In this document: in pieces, positions 9,676-43,536 of the stretch
Numbering within the stretch: position 1 is the first letter of the stretch
Layout of the letters: the number at the start of each line of letters is the position of its first letter
NCBI GenBank assembly: GCA_000165345.1
Contig: CM000429.1
Location: 704,001-768,000, forward strand
Direction: 5' to 3'
DNA: 64,000 nt
Translations under genes and position numbers: made by a program
Notes under the pieces: model-generated
The model's database searches: none
Told to the model about the DNA's origin: nothing
Seen by the model: the letters and a program-made list of their open reading frames with translations, nothing else

Positions 9676-12270
<2,595 letters not shown>

Positions 12271-27420: not shown

Positions 27421-27477
27421 TTGGCGCCCAAACTCACATATTTTTCAATTATTAATTCCGGTACCTGTTTTGGCGCC
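27421..27477. promoter_or_regulatory. paired TTGGCGCC boxes (TTGGCGCCCAAA and TTTTGGCGCCAAC, ~45 bp apart) flanking a CCGGTACC motif in the NOL10/AAGAB-like divergent promoter
   Basis: Read directly. Two near-identical GC boxes in otherwise >85% AT intergenic DNA. Confidence 0.35.
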
Positions 27478-27679
27478 AACTAGAAAATTAAAAAATGTCA
27501 AAAAAAAAAAATTTCCCACGTTATTTAATAATAATTAATATATAAATGAAGAATTTAAAATTGTGTGAATAAAAAATATGAAATATATAAAGCTATATTG
27601 ATATAAAAAGAGAAAGAGAGAGAGAGAAAAAAAAGTTATTGTTATCAATATAATAATTAATTAATATTTGTAATTAGAA

Positions 27680-28929: not shown

Positions 28930-31137
28930 TTAATTCCCAACTTCTGATTCATATATATTTGATATAATTGTATTATTAGCATTTATACTATCTCTTGATT
29001 GATTATATAAAGAATCAATATATTTTCCAATATTAAAAATGCCATTTCCATTTTCCCCCATATTAGTATCTTCTCCTTCTTTACTATTGTCTTTATCTGA
29101 TACAATATAATGTTTTACTTTTAATGGAGTTTTACTATAATGACTTATCTTTGTAGAAAATATCTTATTTGAAGTATTCAATTCATCACTAATAATTTGA
29201 TCAACAGGTGATGCCAATGTTGATGTAATATTCATTTCTTGTTGCTCCTCTTCCTTACCACCTGCTCCTCGCTCTCCTTTCTCTTCTCCTTCTTCTCCTT
29301 CTTCTCCTTCTTGCTCTCCTTCTTCTCCCTTTCCCTCTTCCTTTCCCTCTTCCTTTCCCTTTCCCTTTCCCTCCTCCTCTTCCCTTCCCTTTCCCTCCTC
29401 CTCTCTTACATTCTTTTCTTGTTTCTGCTTCTTCTCTTCTTTTTGCTTATCTTCATTCTCATCCATATGTTTTACTTGATCCTCTTGATCTCGTTCTTGT
29501 TTATCCACATATTCATCATTATCATTTTCAATATCTTCACTGCCATTTCCTCTTAAAGAAATATATAATTTATCATGATAATCAACAATACTTGAAGAAT
29601 CTGATGAATTATCATTTTTTTCATTATTTATACTCATCAAATATCTTTGACTTATATTATTTAAACTTGTATTTCTTCTTCTTAATGAATTATGACTATT
29701 CTTTGATATTTGATCTTTTAAATCACTATTATCGTTATTATTACTATTATCATCATCATTATCATTATCATCATTCATTATTGCTTGATTTATATCATTT
29801 CCAGAAACAAAATTATCCTTAATACTTTCATTTCCATTTACATTAATATTCGATAATAAAGTTGAAACATTTTCATTATCTTTTTCATTTATTTTAATAT
29901 TTGTTAATTCAAAATCTTGACTTTCATCTTCTTTATTATTACTATTATTATTATTATTACGTTTCTTCTTATTATTCTCAGAAGGAATTGCTTGAATAAT
30001 TGCATATGGATATTTATTCTGACCAAAATCTCGATGATTTAAATTTTCAAAAAATTTGGATTTATCATAAAAATATAACATATCTGTACAATTACAATTA
30101 ATATTATTACATAAAAGTTTTCCTTGTTGATTTGGATTACAAGGCATAAATTTATAATATGTATAATTACAATCCATTGGATCAGTTACTTTTAATATCA
30201 TAGAATATGAACTATTTGATAAAGTACTAAGTTGAACAGCTGTTAATTCTTCATGTATATTTTCAGAATCAATCATTTTTGAAATTTCATACATTATATG
30301 TATTCCTTGCATTGCTGTAATTGTATGTCCAATATTATAATACATTCTTTGATTAATATTTTGTATTTCAAGTTCAGTACTCATAAATATTGAAGTTTGT
30401 AAAAATATATGAAATGGAATTAATTTATCTTTACTTCCATGAAATATATATACTCGAGTATTTTGTTTTTTTTCATCACTAACATTGAAATCAAAAATTT
30501 CATTATTTAAAGGAGAATCTTTTCCTAATGATAAATGACTAATCATTGGAATCCAACCAGATACTCCTATTACACCTCCTATTGTAATATCTCTCATAAT
30601 CATTGAAGTAATTAATGCCATAGCAGAACCTTGAGAAAAACCTATTAAAAATATTCTACTTTGATCAATTCCTAAATCAATTTCAGATTTAATAATATTA
30701 CGTATTCTTTTTACACTTTCTAAAATTCCATTAATATCTTCAATATTTTCTGTTGGTGAAAATGATGTAATATTAAACCATGCAGGACATTCATTTCCAT
30801 AGATAGCAGTGATTTTTCTATATTTAGAAGTTGGTATTATCCATTTTGTATTTGGTAAGAAATCTTTTTTATTAACAAGTATTAAAAATCTTTCCCATTC
30901 TACTGCTGAGCTACATAATCCATGTAACCATACAATAACATTTTGATAATTAGATGGAGTAAAATTTAATCCATAACCTCCATTAGTATCACCTTTTTTA
31001 AATTTTACTGTTTGATTTGCTTTTTTTAAAAGGCATTCAACATTAGAAAAAAAAATTATAAAAATGATAAAAATCACATATATTCTTGGGATTTTTCTTT
31101 GAATTTCTAAGCTTAACATATTTGAATTTTTTTCCAC
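28930..31137 (-). CDS. secreted/membrane alpha/beta-hydrolase of the phospholipase/carboxylesterase (LYPLA-like, Abhydrolase_2) family with Cys-rich middle and long Gly/Glu/Lys-rich acidic tail
   Basis: Signal peptide (IYVIFIIFIIFFSNVECL). Abhydrolase_2-like order VIVWLHGL..GFSQGSAMAL (GxSxG nucleophile)..IFHGSKDKLIP. Cys-rich block NCNCTDMLYFY. C-terminal EEGKGKEEGEEGEEGE low-complexity region. Confidence 0.7.
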   Translation of the reverse strand: MEKNSNMLSLEIQRKIPRIYVIFIIFIIFFSNVECLLKKANQTVKFKKGDTNGGYGLNFTPSNYQNVIVWLHGLCSSAVEWERFLILVNKKDFLPNTKWIIPTSKYRKITAIYGNECPAWFNITSFSPTENIEDINGILESVKRIRNIIKSEIDLGIDQSRIFLIGFSQGSAMALITSMIMRDITIGGVIGVSGWIPMISHLSLGKDSPLNNEIFDFNVSDEKKQNTRVYIFHGSKDKLIPFHIFLQTSIFMSTELEIQNINQRMYYNIGHTITAMQGIHIMYEISKMIDSENIHEELTAVQLSTLSNSSYSMILKVTDPMDCNYTYYKFMPCNPNQQGKLLCNNINCNCTDMLYFYDKSKFFENLNHRDFGQNKYPYAIIQAIPSENNKKKRNNNNNSNNKEDESQDFELTNIKINEKDNENVSTLLSNINVNGNESIKDNFVSGNDINQAIMNDDNDNDDDNSNNNDNSDLKDQISKNSHNSLRRRNTSLNNISQRYLMSINNEKNDNSSDSSSIVDYHDKLYISLRGNGSEDIENDNDEYVDKQERDQEDQVKHMDENEDKQKEEKKQKQEKNVREEEGKGREEEEGKGKGKEEGKEEGKGEEGEQEGEEGEEGEEKGERGAGGKEEEQQEMNITSTLASPVDQIISDELNTSNKIFSTKISHYSKTPLKVKHYIVSDKDNSKEGEDTNMGENGNGIFNIGKYIDSLYNQSRDSINANNTIISNIYESEVGN

Positions 31138-32630
31138 TTAAAAAAAAAATCTTTAAAAATTTATCGAATAAATAAAGAAATAAATATGTGTGTTAATACC
31201 CCGTACATATATTTATATCTTTTTTTCTTTTTTAGTTAATTTCTTCCTTTTTTTTTTTTTTTTTAAAAAAAAACTTTATATATGTTTACTATTTAATAAA
31301 TATATAATTTATATATATAAATTATCAATAAATAAATAGATAAATATATATAAATGTGTATTAGATATATTCACTTTTCTAATTCTGAATCAAACAAAGA
31401 AAAAAAAATGTATTTATTTTCACAATTTAACCATTAATTATTTTAATCTGTAAAATTGATAATATTTCTTATATTACTTAAATGTGAACTATTGTACTAA
31501 TACTTCCATATATGTGCAAATTGAAAATTGAAAAAAATAATAATAAATAAAAGTAAATATTGCCAAATTATTACTTTTTATTAAGCAAATCCTTACGATT
31601 TGTTAATATGATTATATTATTTTGTGAAGTAATATATAAATTTAGAAAGGCTATTAATAAAATTTCCTGTTAACTTGATTTTCCACAAATTATTAACTTC
31701 ACTCTTCAATTGCCTTTTTTGACTATTACCTGAAAATCAAACACCTTTCAAATTTTTTCTTTTCACCTTTATTTATCATAGTATTTATATTTTACTTTCT
31801 TATATAAATTTGACCGAGACAAGACGTGCGGATCGAGCAAATTAAATATCAAGAAGGAATTTTGACACGTAATTGCTAGAAGCGCGGTGGGGGGAAGAAG
31901 ATATGGGTAATGAATGAAAAAGTGTAGTAAAATTTGTAAAAGAAATTGAATGAATAGGTGAGAGATTTGATGTAAATTGAATGAGAGTGGAAATGGAATG
32001 TATTTCTATTTCTTATAATTTTTTTTTCTTTTTTTTTTTCATATTGTAATTAAAGACTAGTTATTTAGTAATGGGTTTTATGAGAGAGTAAATATATTAA
32101 ATTCGACAAAATGATTAGAAGAAGGGATTTCAATGATGATATATATTATTACTATTATTTCGTCTAAATTAGATATATATAGTTACAATGAAATTCTTCA
32201 GAGTTTAAATTAAATACTAGAATAGATTTTTTTTTTCTTTATTTTATAAACAGGTTTAAAATGACATTAATATTTAACTTAAGATTGTAATATATTTAAA
32301 TATATTTATTAATTATAATAAATATTAATATAAGTTAAATAAAACACATTCCCGCTATCCCGCCCCCACAAATGATACCCTAACCGGGGATCTAATGAAA
32401 ATAAATGAATTTTGACTGGGCGGCAAATATTTGGCCGCCTAAAGTTTCGGAAAAAAAAGCATTCAAGGTTTCTGTGGGAAAGGATTTAAAAGAAAAAATG
32501 TGGGAAATAATAGAAAATAATGAAAAAAATAGAGAAAAAAAGGAATAGTAGAAAACAATGTCAAATTAGGCTAATTTAATATAATTAAATGAAATAAAAG
32601 TAGATAAGGTTACAATTATTATTATTATTA

Positions 32631-33521
32631 TTACGGATTAGAATCATGATGACAAGCATAAAACCCAAAAAAGAGCTCATTTTTACACAAACTCCATACA
32701 ATATTTTCAGTAAATCCTCCTGCACGTTGTTTAGATTCAATGGATGAATATGTTGAAACATTTGATTTCTTAGCATTTTGATGTAGATATTCCTTGCATG
32801 TAATATTCTTGTCGATAGGATTAGGAATGTTACTACCAAGAGCAATATTTTGATTATTAGAATTGTTTTGATTGTTAGAATTTTTATTAAAATTTTGAAA
32901 GAATTCAGGATATTCATTTTGAAGTGGGTGTACAATTTGAAGATGATCAATTGTGGTATTTTGAGAAAGTTGATTAAGTTGCTCATAAAAAGTACCTTCT
33001 TTTTGTACAATTTCAAGAATATCATTTCTTAAAAGAGTTTCTTCTCTAGTTTTTCTATCTAATATAGCAACTTGATTTTCTTTTGAATATTGATTTAAGA
33101 AATCTTGTGTTGATTTCTTTTCTGTATCATTTCCATAAATTAATTTATATATTAAATCTTCACGTTTCTCAAGATAATTATCATAACAAGGAGTATCTTT
33201 AAAATCTTTTCTTGTTTCATTTAATATTGTATATACCTGTTTTCTTGCTTGACTTTCAAATTTTAAAAAATCTGTCTCGCCATATTCAAAATCTGCAATA
33301 TATTTAACAAAACCATGACATACTGGACATATTTGATTACTTCCTCTTAATATACTTGTTGATTTTTTATTATTATTTGCTTTTGTTGAACATTCTGAAC
33401 AAAATTTATGTCCACATGGATCACCATAGTACATTTTGATATCATTCTTATAATATGTACTTGTCATACATAATGGGCAAGAATATTGTTTTTGACCATC
33501 TTTCCAAATATCTTCATTCAT
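32631..33521 (-). CDS. mnat1: CDK-activating kinase assembly factor MAT1 (RING finger + MAT1 domain)
   Basis: C3HC4 RING: CPLCMTSTYYKNDIKMYYGDPCGHKFCSECS...CPVCHG. The MAT1-domain block FESQARKQVYTILNETRKDFKDTPCYDNYLEKREDLIYKLIYGND aligns with human MNAT1. Confidence 0.85.
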   Translation of the reverse strand: MNEDIWKDGQKQYSCPLCMTSTYYKNDIKMYYGDPCGHKFCSECSTKANNNKKSTSILRGSNQICPVCHGFVKYIADFEYGETDFLKFESQARKQVYTILNETRKDFKDTPCYDNYLEKREDLIYKLIYGNDTEKKSTQDFLNQYSKENQVAILDRKTREETLLRNDILEIVQKEGTFYEQLNQLSQNTTIDHLQIVHPLQNEYPEFFQNFNKNSNNQNNSNNQNIALGSNIPNPIDKNITCKEYLHQNAKKSNVSTYSSIESKQRAGGFTENIVWSLCKNELFFGFYACHHDSNP

Positions 33522-34006
33522 CTTAATTTTGCATATTTTTTTTATAATATTTTTAATTATATATATTTTTTCTGATAATTAATAATATCAGCTTCTTTAT
33601 AAATAGCTAAATAATTTAAAATGAATTAATGTTATTATTATTATTTAATAGCAATATGAATGATTAATTAAATTCCAAAATAATTAATTTAAAATCTATT
33701 ATTGTTTTAAATTCAATATCCAATTTCATTCCTTAAGTTAAACAATTTTAATTTTCTTATTCTTATTCTTTCTTTCTCACTTTATTTCTATCTATTTAAT
33801 TACCTCTCTATCAGAAGATCAAAACTTCAAATTAAATTAGTTGTAATTACTATTCCTAATATTCTCCACCTTTTTTCCTTTAAAGAATTATTTTCTATAG
33901 AAAAATAATAAATAAACAAAAAGTTGAAATTTATTATTATTATTATTTTATTTTTTTTCTTTTATTTCCCCATATAATTTCTTTATTTGACATTTATATA
34001 TAAACA

Positions 34007-34018
34007 TTTGGCGGGAAA
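34007..34018. promoter_or_regulatory. E2F-like box TTTGGCGGGAAA ~80 bp upstream of cyclin H ATG, in the MAT1/cyclin H divergent intergenic region
   Basis: Read directly: catTTGGCGGGAAAtatg. Matches the canonical E2F consensus TTTSSCGC. Function inferred. Confidence 0.4.
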
Positions 34019-34097
34019 TATGAAAAATTATATTAATATTAAAATATGTAATGAATAGAAAAATATAAAGACGGTATTAAATACTAGTAATAATATT

Positions 34098-35173
34098 ATG
34101 AGTGTGTATCCATCTGAATCACATCATTTGAAAGAATGGGTTTTTGGATCTTTAGATTTATTAAAAACAAAAAAAAATTACATTAATGAGAAAGCAAAAG
34201 AAAATTGGAAGGATATTTTTAGACAAATTTCGAGTGAGAATTTTGAGATTAATGAGTTGTTATTAACATCAAAAGATGAAGAAACTTTAATTTCTTATTA
34301 TGGTAGACAATTGATAGAATTTTGTAATCATAAACAGCTTCCATTTGTTTCAAAATATAATGCATCAATATTATATCATAGATTTTTTACTAATCAAAGT
34401 GTAATGGATTATGATCCTAGAATTATAATATTTACAAGTATATCATTAGCATTAAAATTAGAAGAATTTGGACTTCATTTTACATTAGAGAAACTTTTTG
34501 GAGATGTCCCAGGTTTGAATATACAAGAAGTTTTTAGACATGAATTAACTGTGTGTAATACATTAAAATTTCATTTATATATATTAAATCCAAGAAATAC
34601 ATTAGAAGGTTTAAGACTTTTATATAAAAAGTATTATATAGATATTTTGGTAGTTGATGAGAATTTGGATAATAATGATCATAAGAAAACTGAAAATAAG
34701 AAAAATCAATTAATAAGTTTATTATCAAAAGTTATATTAAAAGCAGAAACATACGTATTAATGATTTTACATACATTGTAAGTTTTTTTTTAAAATTTTT
34801 AATTAATGAAAATTAACTATTTTAAATATTTAGGTGTTTTCTAATATATACTCCTTCACAAATTTCAATTGCACTTTTTGATATTAGTGCTAGAGAACTT
34901 AATTTACCTCATTCTGGGGAATTTTTAAAGAAAGTTCTTAAAGAAATTCACCAAGCTAATAGTTTTCAATTAAATGCTGAAACAAGTCATTCTAGTTTAA
35001 CAATTATACATTCAGTTCGAGATTTTGTTATGCAAACTTTAGAAAATGATAGAATTGCAAGAGAAAGAGGCTATGAACATGAAGAAATTGAAACTACGCG
35101 AATTCTTGATAAACTAGGTAAATTACAAAGAAGAAGGAATAAGGAAATGAAGAGAAGAAAGAAGAGTTCCTAA
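34098..35173 (+). CDS. ccnh: cyclin H (2 exons: 34098..34777, 34834..35173)
   Basis: Cyclin-H blocks YYGRQLIEFCN, NQSVMDYDPRIIIFTSISLALKLEEF and FHLYILNPRNTLEGL. GTAAGT donor at 34778 and TAG acceptor ending 34833 restore the frame, and exon 2 begins LCFLIYTPSQISIALFD (cyclin box 2). Stop TAA at 35171-35173. Confidence 0.85.
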
Positions 35174-35221
35174 ATATAATTGATTAATACATTTAAATAT
35201 AAATATAGATATATAATAAAA

Positions 35222-35270
<49 letters not shown>

Positions 35271-35451
35271 TTTATTAATTCATGCACTCAACTAACTTTA
35301 ATCGCATGCAGATTAGTTTTTGCATGCTAACCCAGTTTTTTTTGTCAAAATTTTTTACACGTAATTTACACGTAATTAATTTAATATTATTTCTTGAATT
35401 ACTTTTTAAATAAAAAGGGGGTAGCGCGGGAAATTGGGAAAGAAAAAAAGA

Positions 35452-36306
35452 TTAGTAATTTTGGATCCCAAACTCCAAAATAAGTAAATTATCCAGAGGA
35501 ATTCTTCTAGATCTGCATACAAATTCAAGTGAATGATTTCTAGGAAGAATTTGTCCCCCTTTTAAAAAAATAGAAGGAATCTTTTCAAATTTCTCGTTGG
35601 ATTTATGCATAATATAATTTTGTAAATGAAAAATAGTGATTTGAGGTGGAACTATAAGGTAAGGTTTTTCCAATTGAAAAAATTCTGAATTTATTGATTC
35701 TAATTTAATTTTCATTGATAAATTTTCCAAAACTGTAGTTGTTTGATTATTTGAATCAACTGTTTTATTTTTTTCTAATTCGGGTAAAAGAATTTCATTA
35801 TAAAAATTTGCCGTTGAATCTATTGGTTTAAGCTTAATTTTATTCAATAATTGTGAAGTTATAGGTTTTGTGAGACTCATTAGATCTTTTTCATCATGTA
35901 TATCAGCCTCATCTCCGTATTTTTCTAAAAATTCAGTATATAACTTTCTTTCTTTATCCTTAAATTCTGGAAAAATCTTATCTGTAATATTCTGTATTGT
36001 TCTGTCAAATACTAATCCTTGCAAAGGATATATACCAATATTTTGTCCACATTTTGGGCATTCTGCACCTTTTGATTCAATATGTTCAATTATACAAGCT
36101 TTACAAAATGTATGCAAACATTCTCTTATAGTTGTTGCTCCTCTAAAAAATCCTTCACATATTGGACATATTAATAAATCTGAAACAACCTTTCTTTTAA
36201 ATGATACATCTAACCCATTCTCTGTTACTTTTGTCTCAAGATCTCCAGGTTCATATATATATTTTGAATCATCTTTTACTCCTTTTCTATTTCTTGAAAA
36301 GTTCAT
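35452..36306 (-). CDS. Polycomb-group RING finger (BMI1/PCGF-like) protein: RING + C-terminal ubiquitin-like (RAWUL-type) region
   Basis: LICPICEGFFRGATTIRECLHTFCKACIIEHIESKGAECPKCGQ..LVFDRTIQNITDKIFPEF is collinear with BMI1 [61 protein letters not shown]. Confidence 0.75.
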   Translation of the reverse strand: MNFSRNRKGVKDDSKYIYEPGDLETKVTENGLDVSFKRKVVSDLLICPICEGFFRGATTIRECLHTFCKACIIEHIESKGAECPKCGQNIGIYPLQGLVFDRTIQNITDKIFPEFKDKERKLYTEFLEKYGDEADIHDEKDLMSLTKPITSQLLNKIKLKPIDSTANFYNEILLPELEKNKTVDSNNQTTTVLENLSMKIKLESINSEFFQLEKPYLIVPPQITIFHLQNYIMHKSNEKFEKIPSIFLKGGQILPRNHSLEFVCRSRRIPLDNLLILEFGIQNY

Positions 36307-41202: not shown

Positions 41203-43362
41203 TTATAATTTTGATGGCATTGGACCAATACATTCATTAATATCTTGATTTGTAACTGTTTCTTTATTTAAAAGTAAATCAGAAAGTTTATGGACCTGCT
41301 CTTTTTTTAAAATTAATAATTCTTTAACACGAGAATATTGATCATTAATCATCTTTCTTATACAATTATCTATTGCCTGAGATGTAGCTTCAGAATATGG
41401 TTTATATAAAGAATAACTACTGGTATTATTTGAATTTGAAGAAGTTCCATCAATATTCATATTGGAATTAAAAGTTGTTAATCCAATCTGAGGGTCCATT
41501 CCGTATAAAGTTATCATTGAATTAGCAATCATTGTAGCTTTTTGGAGATCATCATATGCACCTGTTGTAATCGATTCTGAATATAACTCTTCAGAAGCCC
41601 TTCCTGCTAATAGAACTGCAATTTTATCAAGCAAAGCCTCTTTTGAAAGAAGTCTTAATTCATTTGGAACCATTTGAGCAAATCCTAAAGCACCTCCTGT
41701 TCTTGGTACTATAGAAACTTTTAATATAGGATCAGCATGTTTTAAATACCAACCAGCAATTGCATGACCAGATTCATGTAAACTAACAATTTTCTTCTCT
41801 TTTGGTGAAAGATAACCATCCAATTTCTTAAGACCGCCAATAATTCTATCAGATGCTTTATCAAAATCAATCAAATCAACTCCAGAATTACTAGTTCGCC
41901 TTGCTGCATGTATAGCAGCTTCATTACATAAATTTCTAATTTCAGATCCAACAAAACCTGGAGATAAGCAAGCAAGATATTTAATTAACTCATCTTTATT
42001 CAATTTTTCATTCAACTTTAAAGGTTTTAGATGGATCTTAAAAATCTCTTTACGCTCTTCAAGATTTGGTCTTTCAATATTAATAATCCTATCAAATCTT
42101 CCTGGACGTGTTAATGCGGGATCTAATACATCAGAACGATTTGTTCCTGCTAAAACTATTACTCCATTATTTTCAGTAAATCCATCCATTTCTACAAGAA
42201 TCTGATTAAGAGTGCTTTCTCTCTCATCATTAGATGAAGCAGCAAATCCACCCCCTTTTGCACGCTTTCTTCCAACTGCATCAATTTCATCAATAAAAAC
42301 AATACTTGGAGATAATTTTCTTGCCTGTGAAAATAATTCTCTTACTCTACTTGCACCCATTCCAACAAAAATCTCAATAAAATCACTTCCAGATATATAA
42401 AAAAATGGTACATTAGCTTCACCAGCAACAGCTTTTGCCAATAATGTTTTACCGGTACCTGGTGGTCCTACCAATAAAGCACCTTTTGGTATTTTTGCAC
42501 CAAGATCTTGAAATCTTTTTGGATCTTTTAAGAATTCTACCAATTCATATATTTCTTGTTTGGCTTCTTTCATTCCAGCAATATCACTAAATTTAATATT
42601 TTTATTCATATTTTTAACTTGGCTAAAACTTGAATAATTTGATTTAATTAATCTATCTGAAGCTGAATTACTTATAGATTTTGAGAAAGATCTTAATAAT
42701 AATAAAGCTATTGTAATTCCTATTGCTCTTGGAAGTAAATCATTCACAATTTTTTTAAATGATATTAAATGAGAGTATTCTATTGGAACAAAATTTAAAG
42801 TATTCAAACCCATTGAATCTTGTACTTGTTTCATTTTACTCTCAAATGAAGAAAAATCTCCAATACTAAAGTAAATGATTTTTAATTTTGGATTATTTAC
42901 ATTTTCTTTCAAGTAAGCTTTACCTCTTTCATTATTTACTTGAATTCTATCAACATAACCTTTGCTCAAGTATAAATTCACAAATTCTTGAAGAGTTATG
43001 GTATTTTTATATTCATCATATTTCATCTTTGAAAATAATCCAAGACTTGAAATCCCAAATATTGAAATTAAAAACTTATCAAATTTTAATCTATCATTTT
43101 GGCTATTAAAATTGGTATTTTCTTTATTATTTAATTCAAAATTCTTTCTATATGGGATTTTTTTACTTTTGTTGATATTCAACTTATTTTTCATCCAATA
43201 ATTTACTGCAAAACGACTCAAAGCTCCATTTTGATATGTTGGTGATAATTTCAATAAAGAACTACTTTTTTGACTTAATAATTTAAATAATGTATTTGAG
43301 TAAGTATTACTTTGGGAAAATCCCTTTTTTATCATAAAATTAACCAATTGAGCATTTAGCAT
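41203..43362 (-). CDS. mitochondrial m-AAA protease (AFG3-like/paraplegin-like FtsH family; AAA+ ATPase + M41 zinc metalloprotease)
   Basis: Walker [19 protein letters not shown], Walker [10 protein letters not shown], second region of homology, [35 protein letters not shown] (HExxH zinc site; very close to AFG3L2 [34 protein letters not shown]). Confidence 0.85.
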
Positions 43363-43523: not shown

Positions 43524-43536
43524 TTTCCCGCCAAAA
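43524..43536. promoter_or_regulatory. E2F-like box TTTCCCGCCAAAA in the divergent intergenic region between the AFG3-like gene (-) and the CS-domain gene (+)
   Basis: Read directly: aaaTTTCCCGCCAAAActttg. A perfect reverse-orientation E2F consensus. Confidence 0.35.

Follow-up and report, generated by a model that had tools for sequence, protein, structure and literature searches.

Two subunits of one protein complex, encoded side by side and transcribed away from each other across a short spacer, raise the question of whether selection has tied their expression together or whether a compact genome has simply brought them into contact. We examined this for the genes encoding MAT1 and cyclin H in a 64,000-nucleotide stretch of DNA (GenBank assembly GCA_000165345.1, contig CM000429.1, positions 704,001 to 768,000 of the forward strand), here called the window and numbered from its first letter. 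Both proteins belong to the CAK/TFIIH kinase module, which is known as CDK7-cyclin H-MAT1, as Kin28-Ccl1-Tfb3 in yeast, as MRK-Cyc1-MAT1 in Plasmodium and as Cdk7-CyclinH-Mat1 in Toxoplasma. An earlier note on this DNA had described the gene pair and an E2F box between the two genes, and had proposed a bidirectional promoter that enforces stoichiometric co-expression.

Identity and arrangement of the two genes

The genes are arranged head-to-head, with MAT1 on the minus strand and cyclin H on the plus strand, and all of the coordinates in the earlier note, including both start codons, were recovered:

32631 to 33521, minus strand: MAT1/Tfb3 orthologue cgd1_3300, 296 aa, single exon, ATG at 33521
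34098 to 34777, plus strand: exon 1 of the cyclin H gene cgd1_3310, with the first cyclin fold (Pfam Cyclin_N), ATG at 34098
34778 to 34833, plus strand: intron of cgd1_3310, 56 nt, GTAAGT...TAG, whose splicing restores the frame
34834 to 35173, plus strand: exon 2 of cgd1_3310, with a weakly detected second cyclin fold and, at the C-terminus, a basic tail, stop at 35173

The earlier note had assumed a dictyostelid origin, which proved incorrect. The DNA belongs to chromosome 1 of a parasite of the Cryptosporidium parvum group: it shares 99.95% identity with GCA_031892065.1 across 12.9 kb, and exact copies of the proteins are encoded in Cryptosporidium assemblies. A protein identical to the cgd1_3300 product is encoded in Cryptosporidium sp. 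43IA8 and C. parvum. The synteny comparison with other dictyostelids that had been suggested was therefore aimed at the wrong clade.

Pfam analysis of the cgd1_3300 product identified the MAT1 domain (PF06391, E=9e-10, 39.2 bits against a cutoff of 25) and an N-terminal C3HC4 RING (residues 14-69 match zf-C3HC4 with 22.6 bits against a cutoff of 21), with matches to further RING models; the Cys/His ligands of this RING are invariant in alignments. Its closest relatives in the PDB are yeast Tfb3 (4e-11) and human MAT1 (6e-8), which rank ahead of all other RING proteins, so the MAT1 assignment of the earlier note withstood the HMM check that it had proposed. The C-terminal segment of MAT1 is the part that binds CDK7-cyclin H. 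In cgd1_3300 a candidate for this segment, AGGFTE...CKNELFFGFY, is conserved, and a MAFFT alignment places its AGGFTE...ELFFGF tail opposite AGG...EEAFxGLF, the tail of the Balamuthia and metagenomic MAT1 proteins. The gene has also been named as the TFB3 orthologue in a published study (PMC2408969).

The same HMM check on cyclin H was borne out in part. Cyclin_N was detected in the cgd1_3310 product above its cutoff (E=5.6e-6, 26.5 bits against 23), and its best matches in the PDB, human cyclin H at 3e-16 and yeast Ccl1 at 2e-8, are far ahead of cyclin L1 (8e-3), but the second cyclin fold is weakly detected, with Cyclin_C_2 scoring 18.9 bits, below its cutoff of 27. Within the product, the stretch LIYTPSQI... 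aligns with residues 201-236 of human cyclin H with weak significance in the PDB search. A published gene listing annotates the gene as "possible cyclin H". The possibility that either MAT1 or cyclin H was misidentified is ruled out by the Pfam and PDB matches.

The intron-containing gene model for cyclin H put forward in the earlier note agrees with newer annotations. The spliced product has 339 aa and is identical to the NCBI models WKS76237.1 and KAL5370577.1, and tblastn located the exon junction, at aa 227/228, in seven other species as well. The NCBI title of WKS76237.1 is "cyclin H-like protein". The older Iowa II model of cgd1_3310 has 227 aa and ends at the intron, which confirms that this model, the basis of RT-PCR and clustering studies, is truncated there.

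The divergent spacer and its conservation in the genus

The spacer between the two start codons, given as about 575 bp in the earlier note, measures 576 bp and contains three features of interest:

33522 to 34097, no strand: divergent spacer between MAT1 and cyclin H, 576 bp, 16% G+C
33718 to 33734, no strand: conserved footprint ATCCAATTTCATTCCTT, 12 of 17 columns invariant in four species
33972 to 34001, no strand: conserved footprint ATATAATTTCTTTATTTGACATTTATATAT, 22 of 30 columns invariant in four species
34007 to 34018, plus strand: E2F/DP-type site TTTGGCGGGAAA, exact match to motif 4

The TTTGGCGGGAAA site was found exactly where the earlier note had placed it. It is situated 80-91 bp ahead of the cyclin H start codon; the MAT1 start codon is 486-497 bp away. 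The site fits the TTTSSCGC consensus on both strands. It corresponds to TTTGGCGGGAAV, the E2F-like motif 4 of C. parvum (Oberstaller 2013, PMC3734150). In a four-species alignment, 23% of the spacer positions are invariant overall and only three blocks are strongly conserved, namely 33718-33734, 33972-34001 and the E2F box (34003-34018). The ATATAATTTCTTTATTTGACATTTATATAT footprint is directly upstream of the E2F box, and in C. xiaoi and C. ryanae the box likewise follows a ACATTTAT remnant. The ATCCAATTTCATTCCTT footprint lies upstream of MAT1, approximately 200 bp from its ATG, and its sequence conservation and position make it a candidate for a MAT1-proximal promoter element. The spacer thus features two modules, one cyclin-proximal and one MAT1-proximal, approximately 240 bp apart. 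When ATCCAATTTCATTCCTT and ATATAATTTCTTTATTTGACATTTATATAT were considered as general motifs, neither was enriched within the window and both are locus-specific. No Rfam family reaches threshold anywhere within the window, spacer and flanks included, and the available part of the PMC7840661 supplements lists no lncRNA at cgd1_3290-3320.

The locus was compared between C. parvum and C. meleagridis, C. ubiquitum, C. canis, C. felis, C. xiaoi, C. ryanae, C. muris and C. serpentis. The neighbour of MAT1 is the cyclin H orthologue in each of the eight other species (tblastn), and the pair is divergent in all nine, with spacers of 576, 478, 554, 474, 455, 731, 900, 149 and 146 bp. The flanking gene order is also kept: a block of nine or more genes, in the order hydrolase, unknown, PCGF-like RING, cyclin H, MAT1, abhydrolase, adaptin-binding and NOL10, is collinear from C. 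parvum to C. muris. As the entire block is collinear, retention of the pair says little by itself and is no specific sign of selection.

The spacer of every intestinal-clade species (7/7, or seven of the nine species overall) contains exactly one strong E2F-like box. In C. parvum, C. meleagridis, C. ubiquitum, C. canis and C. felis, 66-90 bp separate the box from the cyclin H ATG downstream of it. In C. xiaoi and C. ryanae the distances are approximately 285-300 bp to the MAT1 ATG and 450-600 bp to that of cyclin H, and because the box is nearer to MAT1 in these two species it is not strictly a cyclin-H-proximal element. No E2F-like site was found in the 146-149-bp spacers of the gastric species C. 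muris and C. serpentis; these species retain the pair without it, so the arrangement does not depend on E2F. E2F boxes occur elsewhere within the collinear block of C. muris.

The motif itself is not a chance string, since it is enriched over shuffled sequence: the window contains four copies of the TTTGGCGGGAAA 12-mer with no more than one mismatch (0.14 expected) and 11 copies of TTTSSCGC (0.54 expected), all 11 of which are intergenic. The enrichment is not particular to this spacer but extends across the genome. Nine of the 27 neighbouring gene pairs in the window are divergent, and five of these nine divergent spacers carry an E2F-like site. Given that intergenic DNA carries approximately 0.5 sites per kb, the chance that a 576-bp spacer holds one is roughly one in four. 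No upstream elements in C. parvum are more over-represented than two E2F-like motifs, of which motif 4 is one (PMC3734150), and the literature describes E2F as the genome's most abundant transcription-factor site. [quoted passage not shown] The spacer is close in length to the mean intergenic distance of 504 bp in C. parvum (PMC7840661). A spacer that is shared by two genes and bears an E2F site is the default promoter architecture in this genome and is nothing distinctive; as short E2F-bearing spacers are the norm in Cryptosporidium, the MAT1-cyclin H layout is neat but fairly ordinary. The literature attributes two E2F and two DP genes to C. parvum, all of which are located outside the window, and published reviews state that E2F function in Cryptosporidium lacks validation.

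Expression of the pair and the origin of the arrangement

Expression was assessed with the 18S-normalised RT-PCR data of Mauzy 2012 (Table S1), which comprise four time courses with seven time points. Gene identifiers were fixed by mapping flanking RT-PCR primers, which place cgd1_3200 to cgd1_3490 of chromosome 1 on the window, together with annotations in two papers. The co-expression that the earlier note had put up for checking is visible in the medians: the log-median profiles of cgd1_3300 and cgd1_3310 correlate with r=0.88 (n=7 time points), and the two are each other's best match among 28 chromosome 1 genes, within the top 4.5% of 378 pairs. It does not hold up evenly across replicates, where Spearman coefficients are 0.31, 0.32, 0.89 and 0.14, and it is not particular to these partners: the tandem neighbour cgd1_3290, a non-partner, is nearly as good a match (r=0.82 and 0.77 with the two genes), and the unrelated divergent pair cgd1_3320/3330 reaches r=0.91. 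Co-regulation of MAT1 and cyclin H is plausible, and the series is consistent with generic co-variation of neighbouring genes or of divergent promoters.

The proposal of enforced stoichiometry is not supported. The signal for MAT1 is 200-770-fold higher than that for cyclin H, a gap that is indicative only, because the efficiencies of the RT-PCR primers are not known. In addition, Oberstaller 2013 assigned cgd1_3300 and cgd1_3310 to separate expression clusters, 51 and 27, of about 200.

Taken together, we consider it probable that the cgd1_3300/cgd1_3310 spacer is an E2F-bearing region that fires bidirectionally, and that the adjacency arose from compaction and chance rather than as a selected device for stoichiometry. 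The spacer would most likely be a single nucleosome-free region firing both ways, like most promoters of a compact genome. The 30-bp footprint and the E2F/DP site would together form a cyclin-H-proximal module at 80-125 bp from the start codon of cyclin H, and the footprint approximately 200 bp from the MAT1 ATG a second one. Transcription of cyclin H is probably driven by E2F/DP, the dominant promoter factor in Cryptosporidium, which may also have a part in that of MAT1, and such control could give rise to loosely similar time profiles with unequal transcript levels. Genome compaction and chance would account for the adjacency, which strong genus-wide synteny may then have frozen. The Cryptosporidium gene count is roughly 3,900. 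The prior chance that two named genes are adjacent is about 2/N, or approximately 5e-4 with N set to that count. The observation was post hoc, however, and with thousands of same-complex pairs in a proteome we estimate that a few adjacent ones would arise by chance across the genome.

That low prior is one of several points that favour a different origin, in which selection keeps the pair because one E2F-dependent promoter couples MAT1 to cyclin H and so matches the amounts and timing of CAK. MAT1 and cyclin H are direct partners in one complex, and biochemical work in Toxoplasma and Plasmodium has demonstrated a CAK trimer. The pair persists in nine species, down to a 146-bp spacer in which the promoters must overlap, a single E2F site is conserved in seven of them, and the mutual best correlation of the median profiles also speaks for coupling. 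The expression data nevertheless pull the other way, given the distance between transcript levels (subject to the primer efficiencies), the different published clusters, the weak replicate-level correlation and the almost equal co-variation of cgd1_3290. Conservation of the pair is not specific in a block that is collinear throughout the genus, the two gastric species have no E2F site, and the P. falciparum orthologues are on different chromosomes. We therefore consider selection for a shared promoter unlikely.

The disparity in abundance and the separate clusters would fit two independent back-to-back promoters, in which the E2F box and its adjoining footprint serve cyclin H only, 33718-33734 serves MAT1, and a boundary is all that the two genes have in common. 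The presence of two conserved modules, each nearer to one gene, and the short distance from the E2F box to the cyclin H ATG in five species also argue for such a division. However, MAT1 is the nearer gene to the box in C. xiaoi and C. ryanae, the median profiles of the two genes correlate, the spacers of C. muris and C. serpentis are too short for two fully separate promoter regions, and most regulatory ATAC-seq peaks in C. parvum were scored as bidirectional. Independent promoters thus seem improbable to us, and we retain the reading of a bidirectionally firing spacer whose adjacency was not selected.

A more far-reaching version of the selection argument, that Cryptosporidium, as the sole apicomplexan lineage to retain E2F/DP, hard-wired two CAK subunits to one selected E2F-dependent bidirectional promoter, appears very doubtful. 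If it were true, the kinase module responsible for activating CDKs and RNA polymerase II would come under the direct co-control of the cell-cycle factor E2F/DP. A shared E2F-dependent promoter in the spacer would also provide a compact, genetically tractable test case for the E2F/DP system, and for whether divergent Cryptosporidium promoters couple partner genes whose products must assemble.

Comparison with known systems

With its RING, MAT1 domain and candidate C-terminal segment, cgd1_3300 is a clear MAT1/Tfb3 orthologue, and cgd1_3310 is a clear cyclin H/Ccl1 orthologue, albeit with a weakly detected second cyclin fold. The third CAK subunit, CDK7, was looked for nearby and is absent from the window, where the sole kinase, cgd1_3230, is CAMK/AGC-like and is not a CDK. 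Profile searches with MAT1 retrieved only Cryptosporidium, a few transcriptome or metagenome fragments, and then animals, fungi and Balamuthia, with no genomic locus from a gregarine, coccidian or chromerid among them. In the organisms compared outside the genus the linkage is not shared; the earlier note had supposed its absence from animals and yeasts. To our knowledge, MNAT1 and CCNH are unlinked in humans, as are TFB3 and CCL1 in yeast, and no cyclin neighbour was found at the MAT1 locus of Pneumocystis. In P. falciparum, MAT1 (PFE0610c, chromosome 5) and Cyc1 (PF3D7_1463700, chromosome 14) are unlinked. No mention of MAT1-cyclin H adjacency was found in the literature searched, and the locus is a previously unremarked example of a divergent, functionally linked pair with an E2F-bearing spacer.

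The predicted site is typical of the Cryptosporidium E2F/DP elements (motifs 3 and 4 of Oberstaller 2013): it matches motif 4 exactly and occupies an upstream intergenic position at a typical distance from the start codon. The layout, in turn, resembles the bidirectional promoters of linked gene pairs, such as histone pairs and the ribosomal protein pair S16/L13, in being head-to-head with starts less than 1 kb apart (576 bp from ATG to ATG here and 146-900 bp in the eight other species), in encoding products of one complex and in being kept across species. The S16/L13 pair is kept across kingdoms, in fungi and in Apicomplexa, whereas conservation of the MAT1-cyclin H pair is confined to one genus with near-complete synteny, and sharing of its promoter is something we infer. 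As it stands, the locus adds one more example to a known class, the divergent, functionally linked gene pairs of compact genomes.

E2F-type sites in divergent spacers

Two E2F-type sites were located in other divergent spacers of the window, one of which is a second exact copy of TTTGGCGGGAAA that lies between genes for an FtsH-like AAA protease and an unknown protein:

27467-27478: TTTTGGCGCCAA, palindromic E2F-type site, NOL10-like/adaptin-binding divergent spacer
41203-43362, minus strand: FtsH-like AAA protease
43524-43535, minus strand: second exact copy of TTTGGCGGGAAA
43802-44437, plus strand: unknown gene

The TTTTGGCGCCAA site is kept in the orthologous NOL10-like/adaptin-binding spacer of Cryptosporidium muris (positions 10872-10883 of locus L009), whereas the same species has lost the E2F box from its MAT1/cyclin H spacer. 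The latter spans 149 bp in C. muris (L009 7852-8000) and 146 bp in Cryptosporidium serpentis (locus L010, 3147-3292), and the two are near-identical in sequence with a G+C content of 10-14%. The sole non-AT island in them, AACAGCGCTATTT, is a GCGC palindrome and falls outside the E2F consensus.

Cyclin H gene models

The widely used Cryptosporidium parvum Iowa II model of the cyclin H gene, cgd1_3310 (XP_628145.1), has 227 aa and ends at the intron, as do the cyclin H models of C. meleagridis, C. tyzzeri, C. xiaoi and C. ryanae. Expression and motif studies that rest on the 227-aa model have used a truncated gene.

The gap between MAT1 and cgd1_3290

An unusually long stretch of 1.5 kb without genes (31120-32630) separates the MAT1 stop from the start of its tandem neighbour, cgd1_3290; the corresponding gap in C. 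muris is just 349 bp. Promoter-like motif clusters are found here:

near 31880: GAAGCGCGGTGGGGGG
32350-32369: TCCCGCTATCCCGCCCCCAC
near 32420: GGGCGGCAAATATTTGGCCGCC, E2F-like

C. meleagridis and C. xiaoi have comparable motifs at comparable offsets. An unannotated transcript, possibly one that runs antisense to MAT1, may lie in this gap.

The 3' side of cyclin H

Cyclin H is convergent with cgd1_3320 (35452-36306, minus strand), which encodes a PCGF/BMI1-like RING protein with PDB matches to a RING2-BMI1 chimera (4e-26) and PCGF1 (6e-21). Judged by its sequence, cgd1_3320 is a Polycomb-type RING protein; the parasite that encodes it is not known to have PRC1. The spacer between these tail-to-tail genes (35174-35451) features a (TA)n microsatellite of ~40 bp (35230-35270) shortly 3' of the cyclin H stop codon, as well as three motifs:

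35304-35309 and 35322-35327: GCATGC cores, ApiAP2_1-type
35424-35433: GCGCGGGAAA, E2F-like

A GCATGC core is likewise present in this spacer in C. ubiquitum. In the parts of the PMC7840661 supplements consulted, no lncRNA is listed for cyclin H or cgd1_3320. With its motifs, the spacer resembles reported C. parvum promoters of 3'-end antisense lncRNAs.
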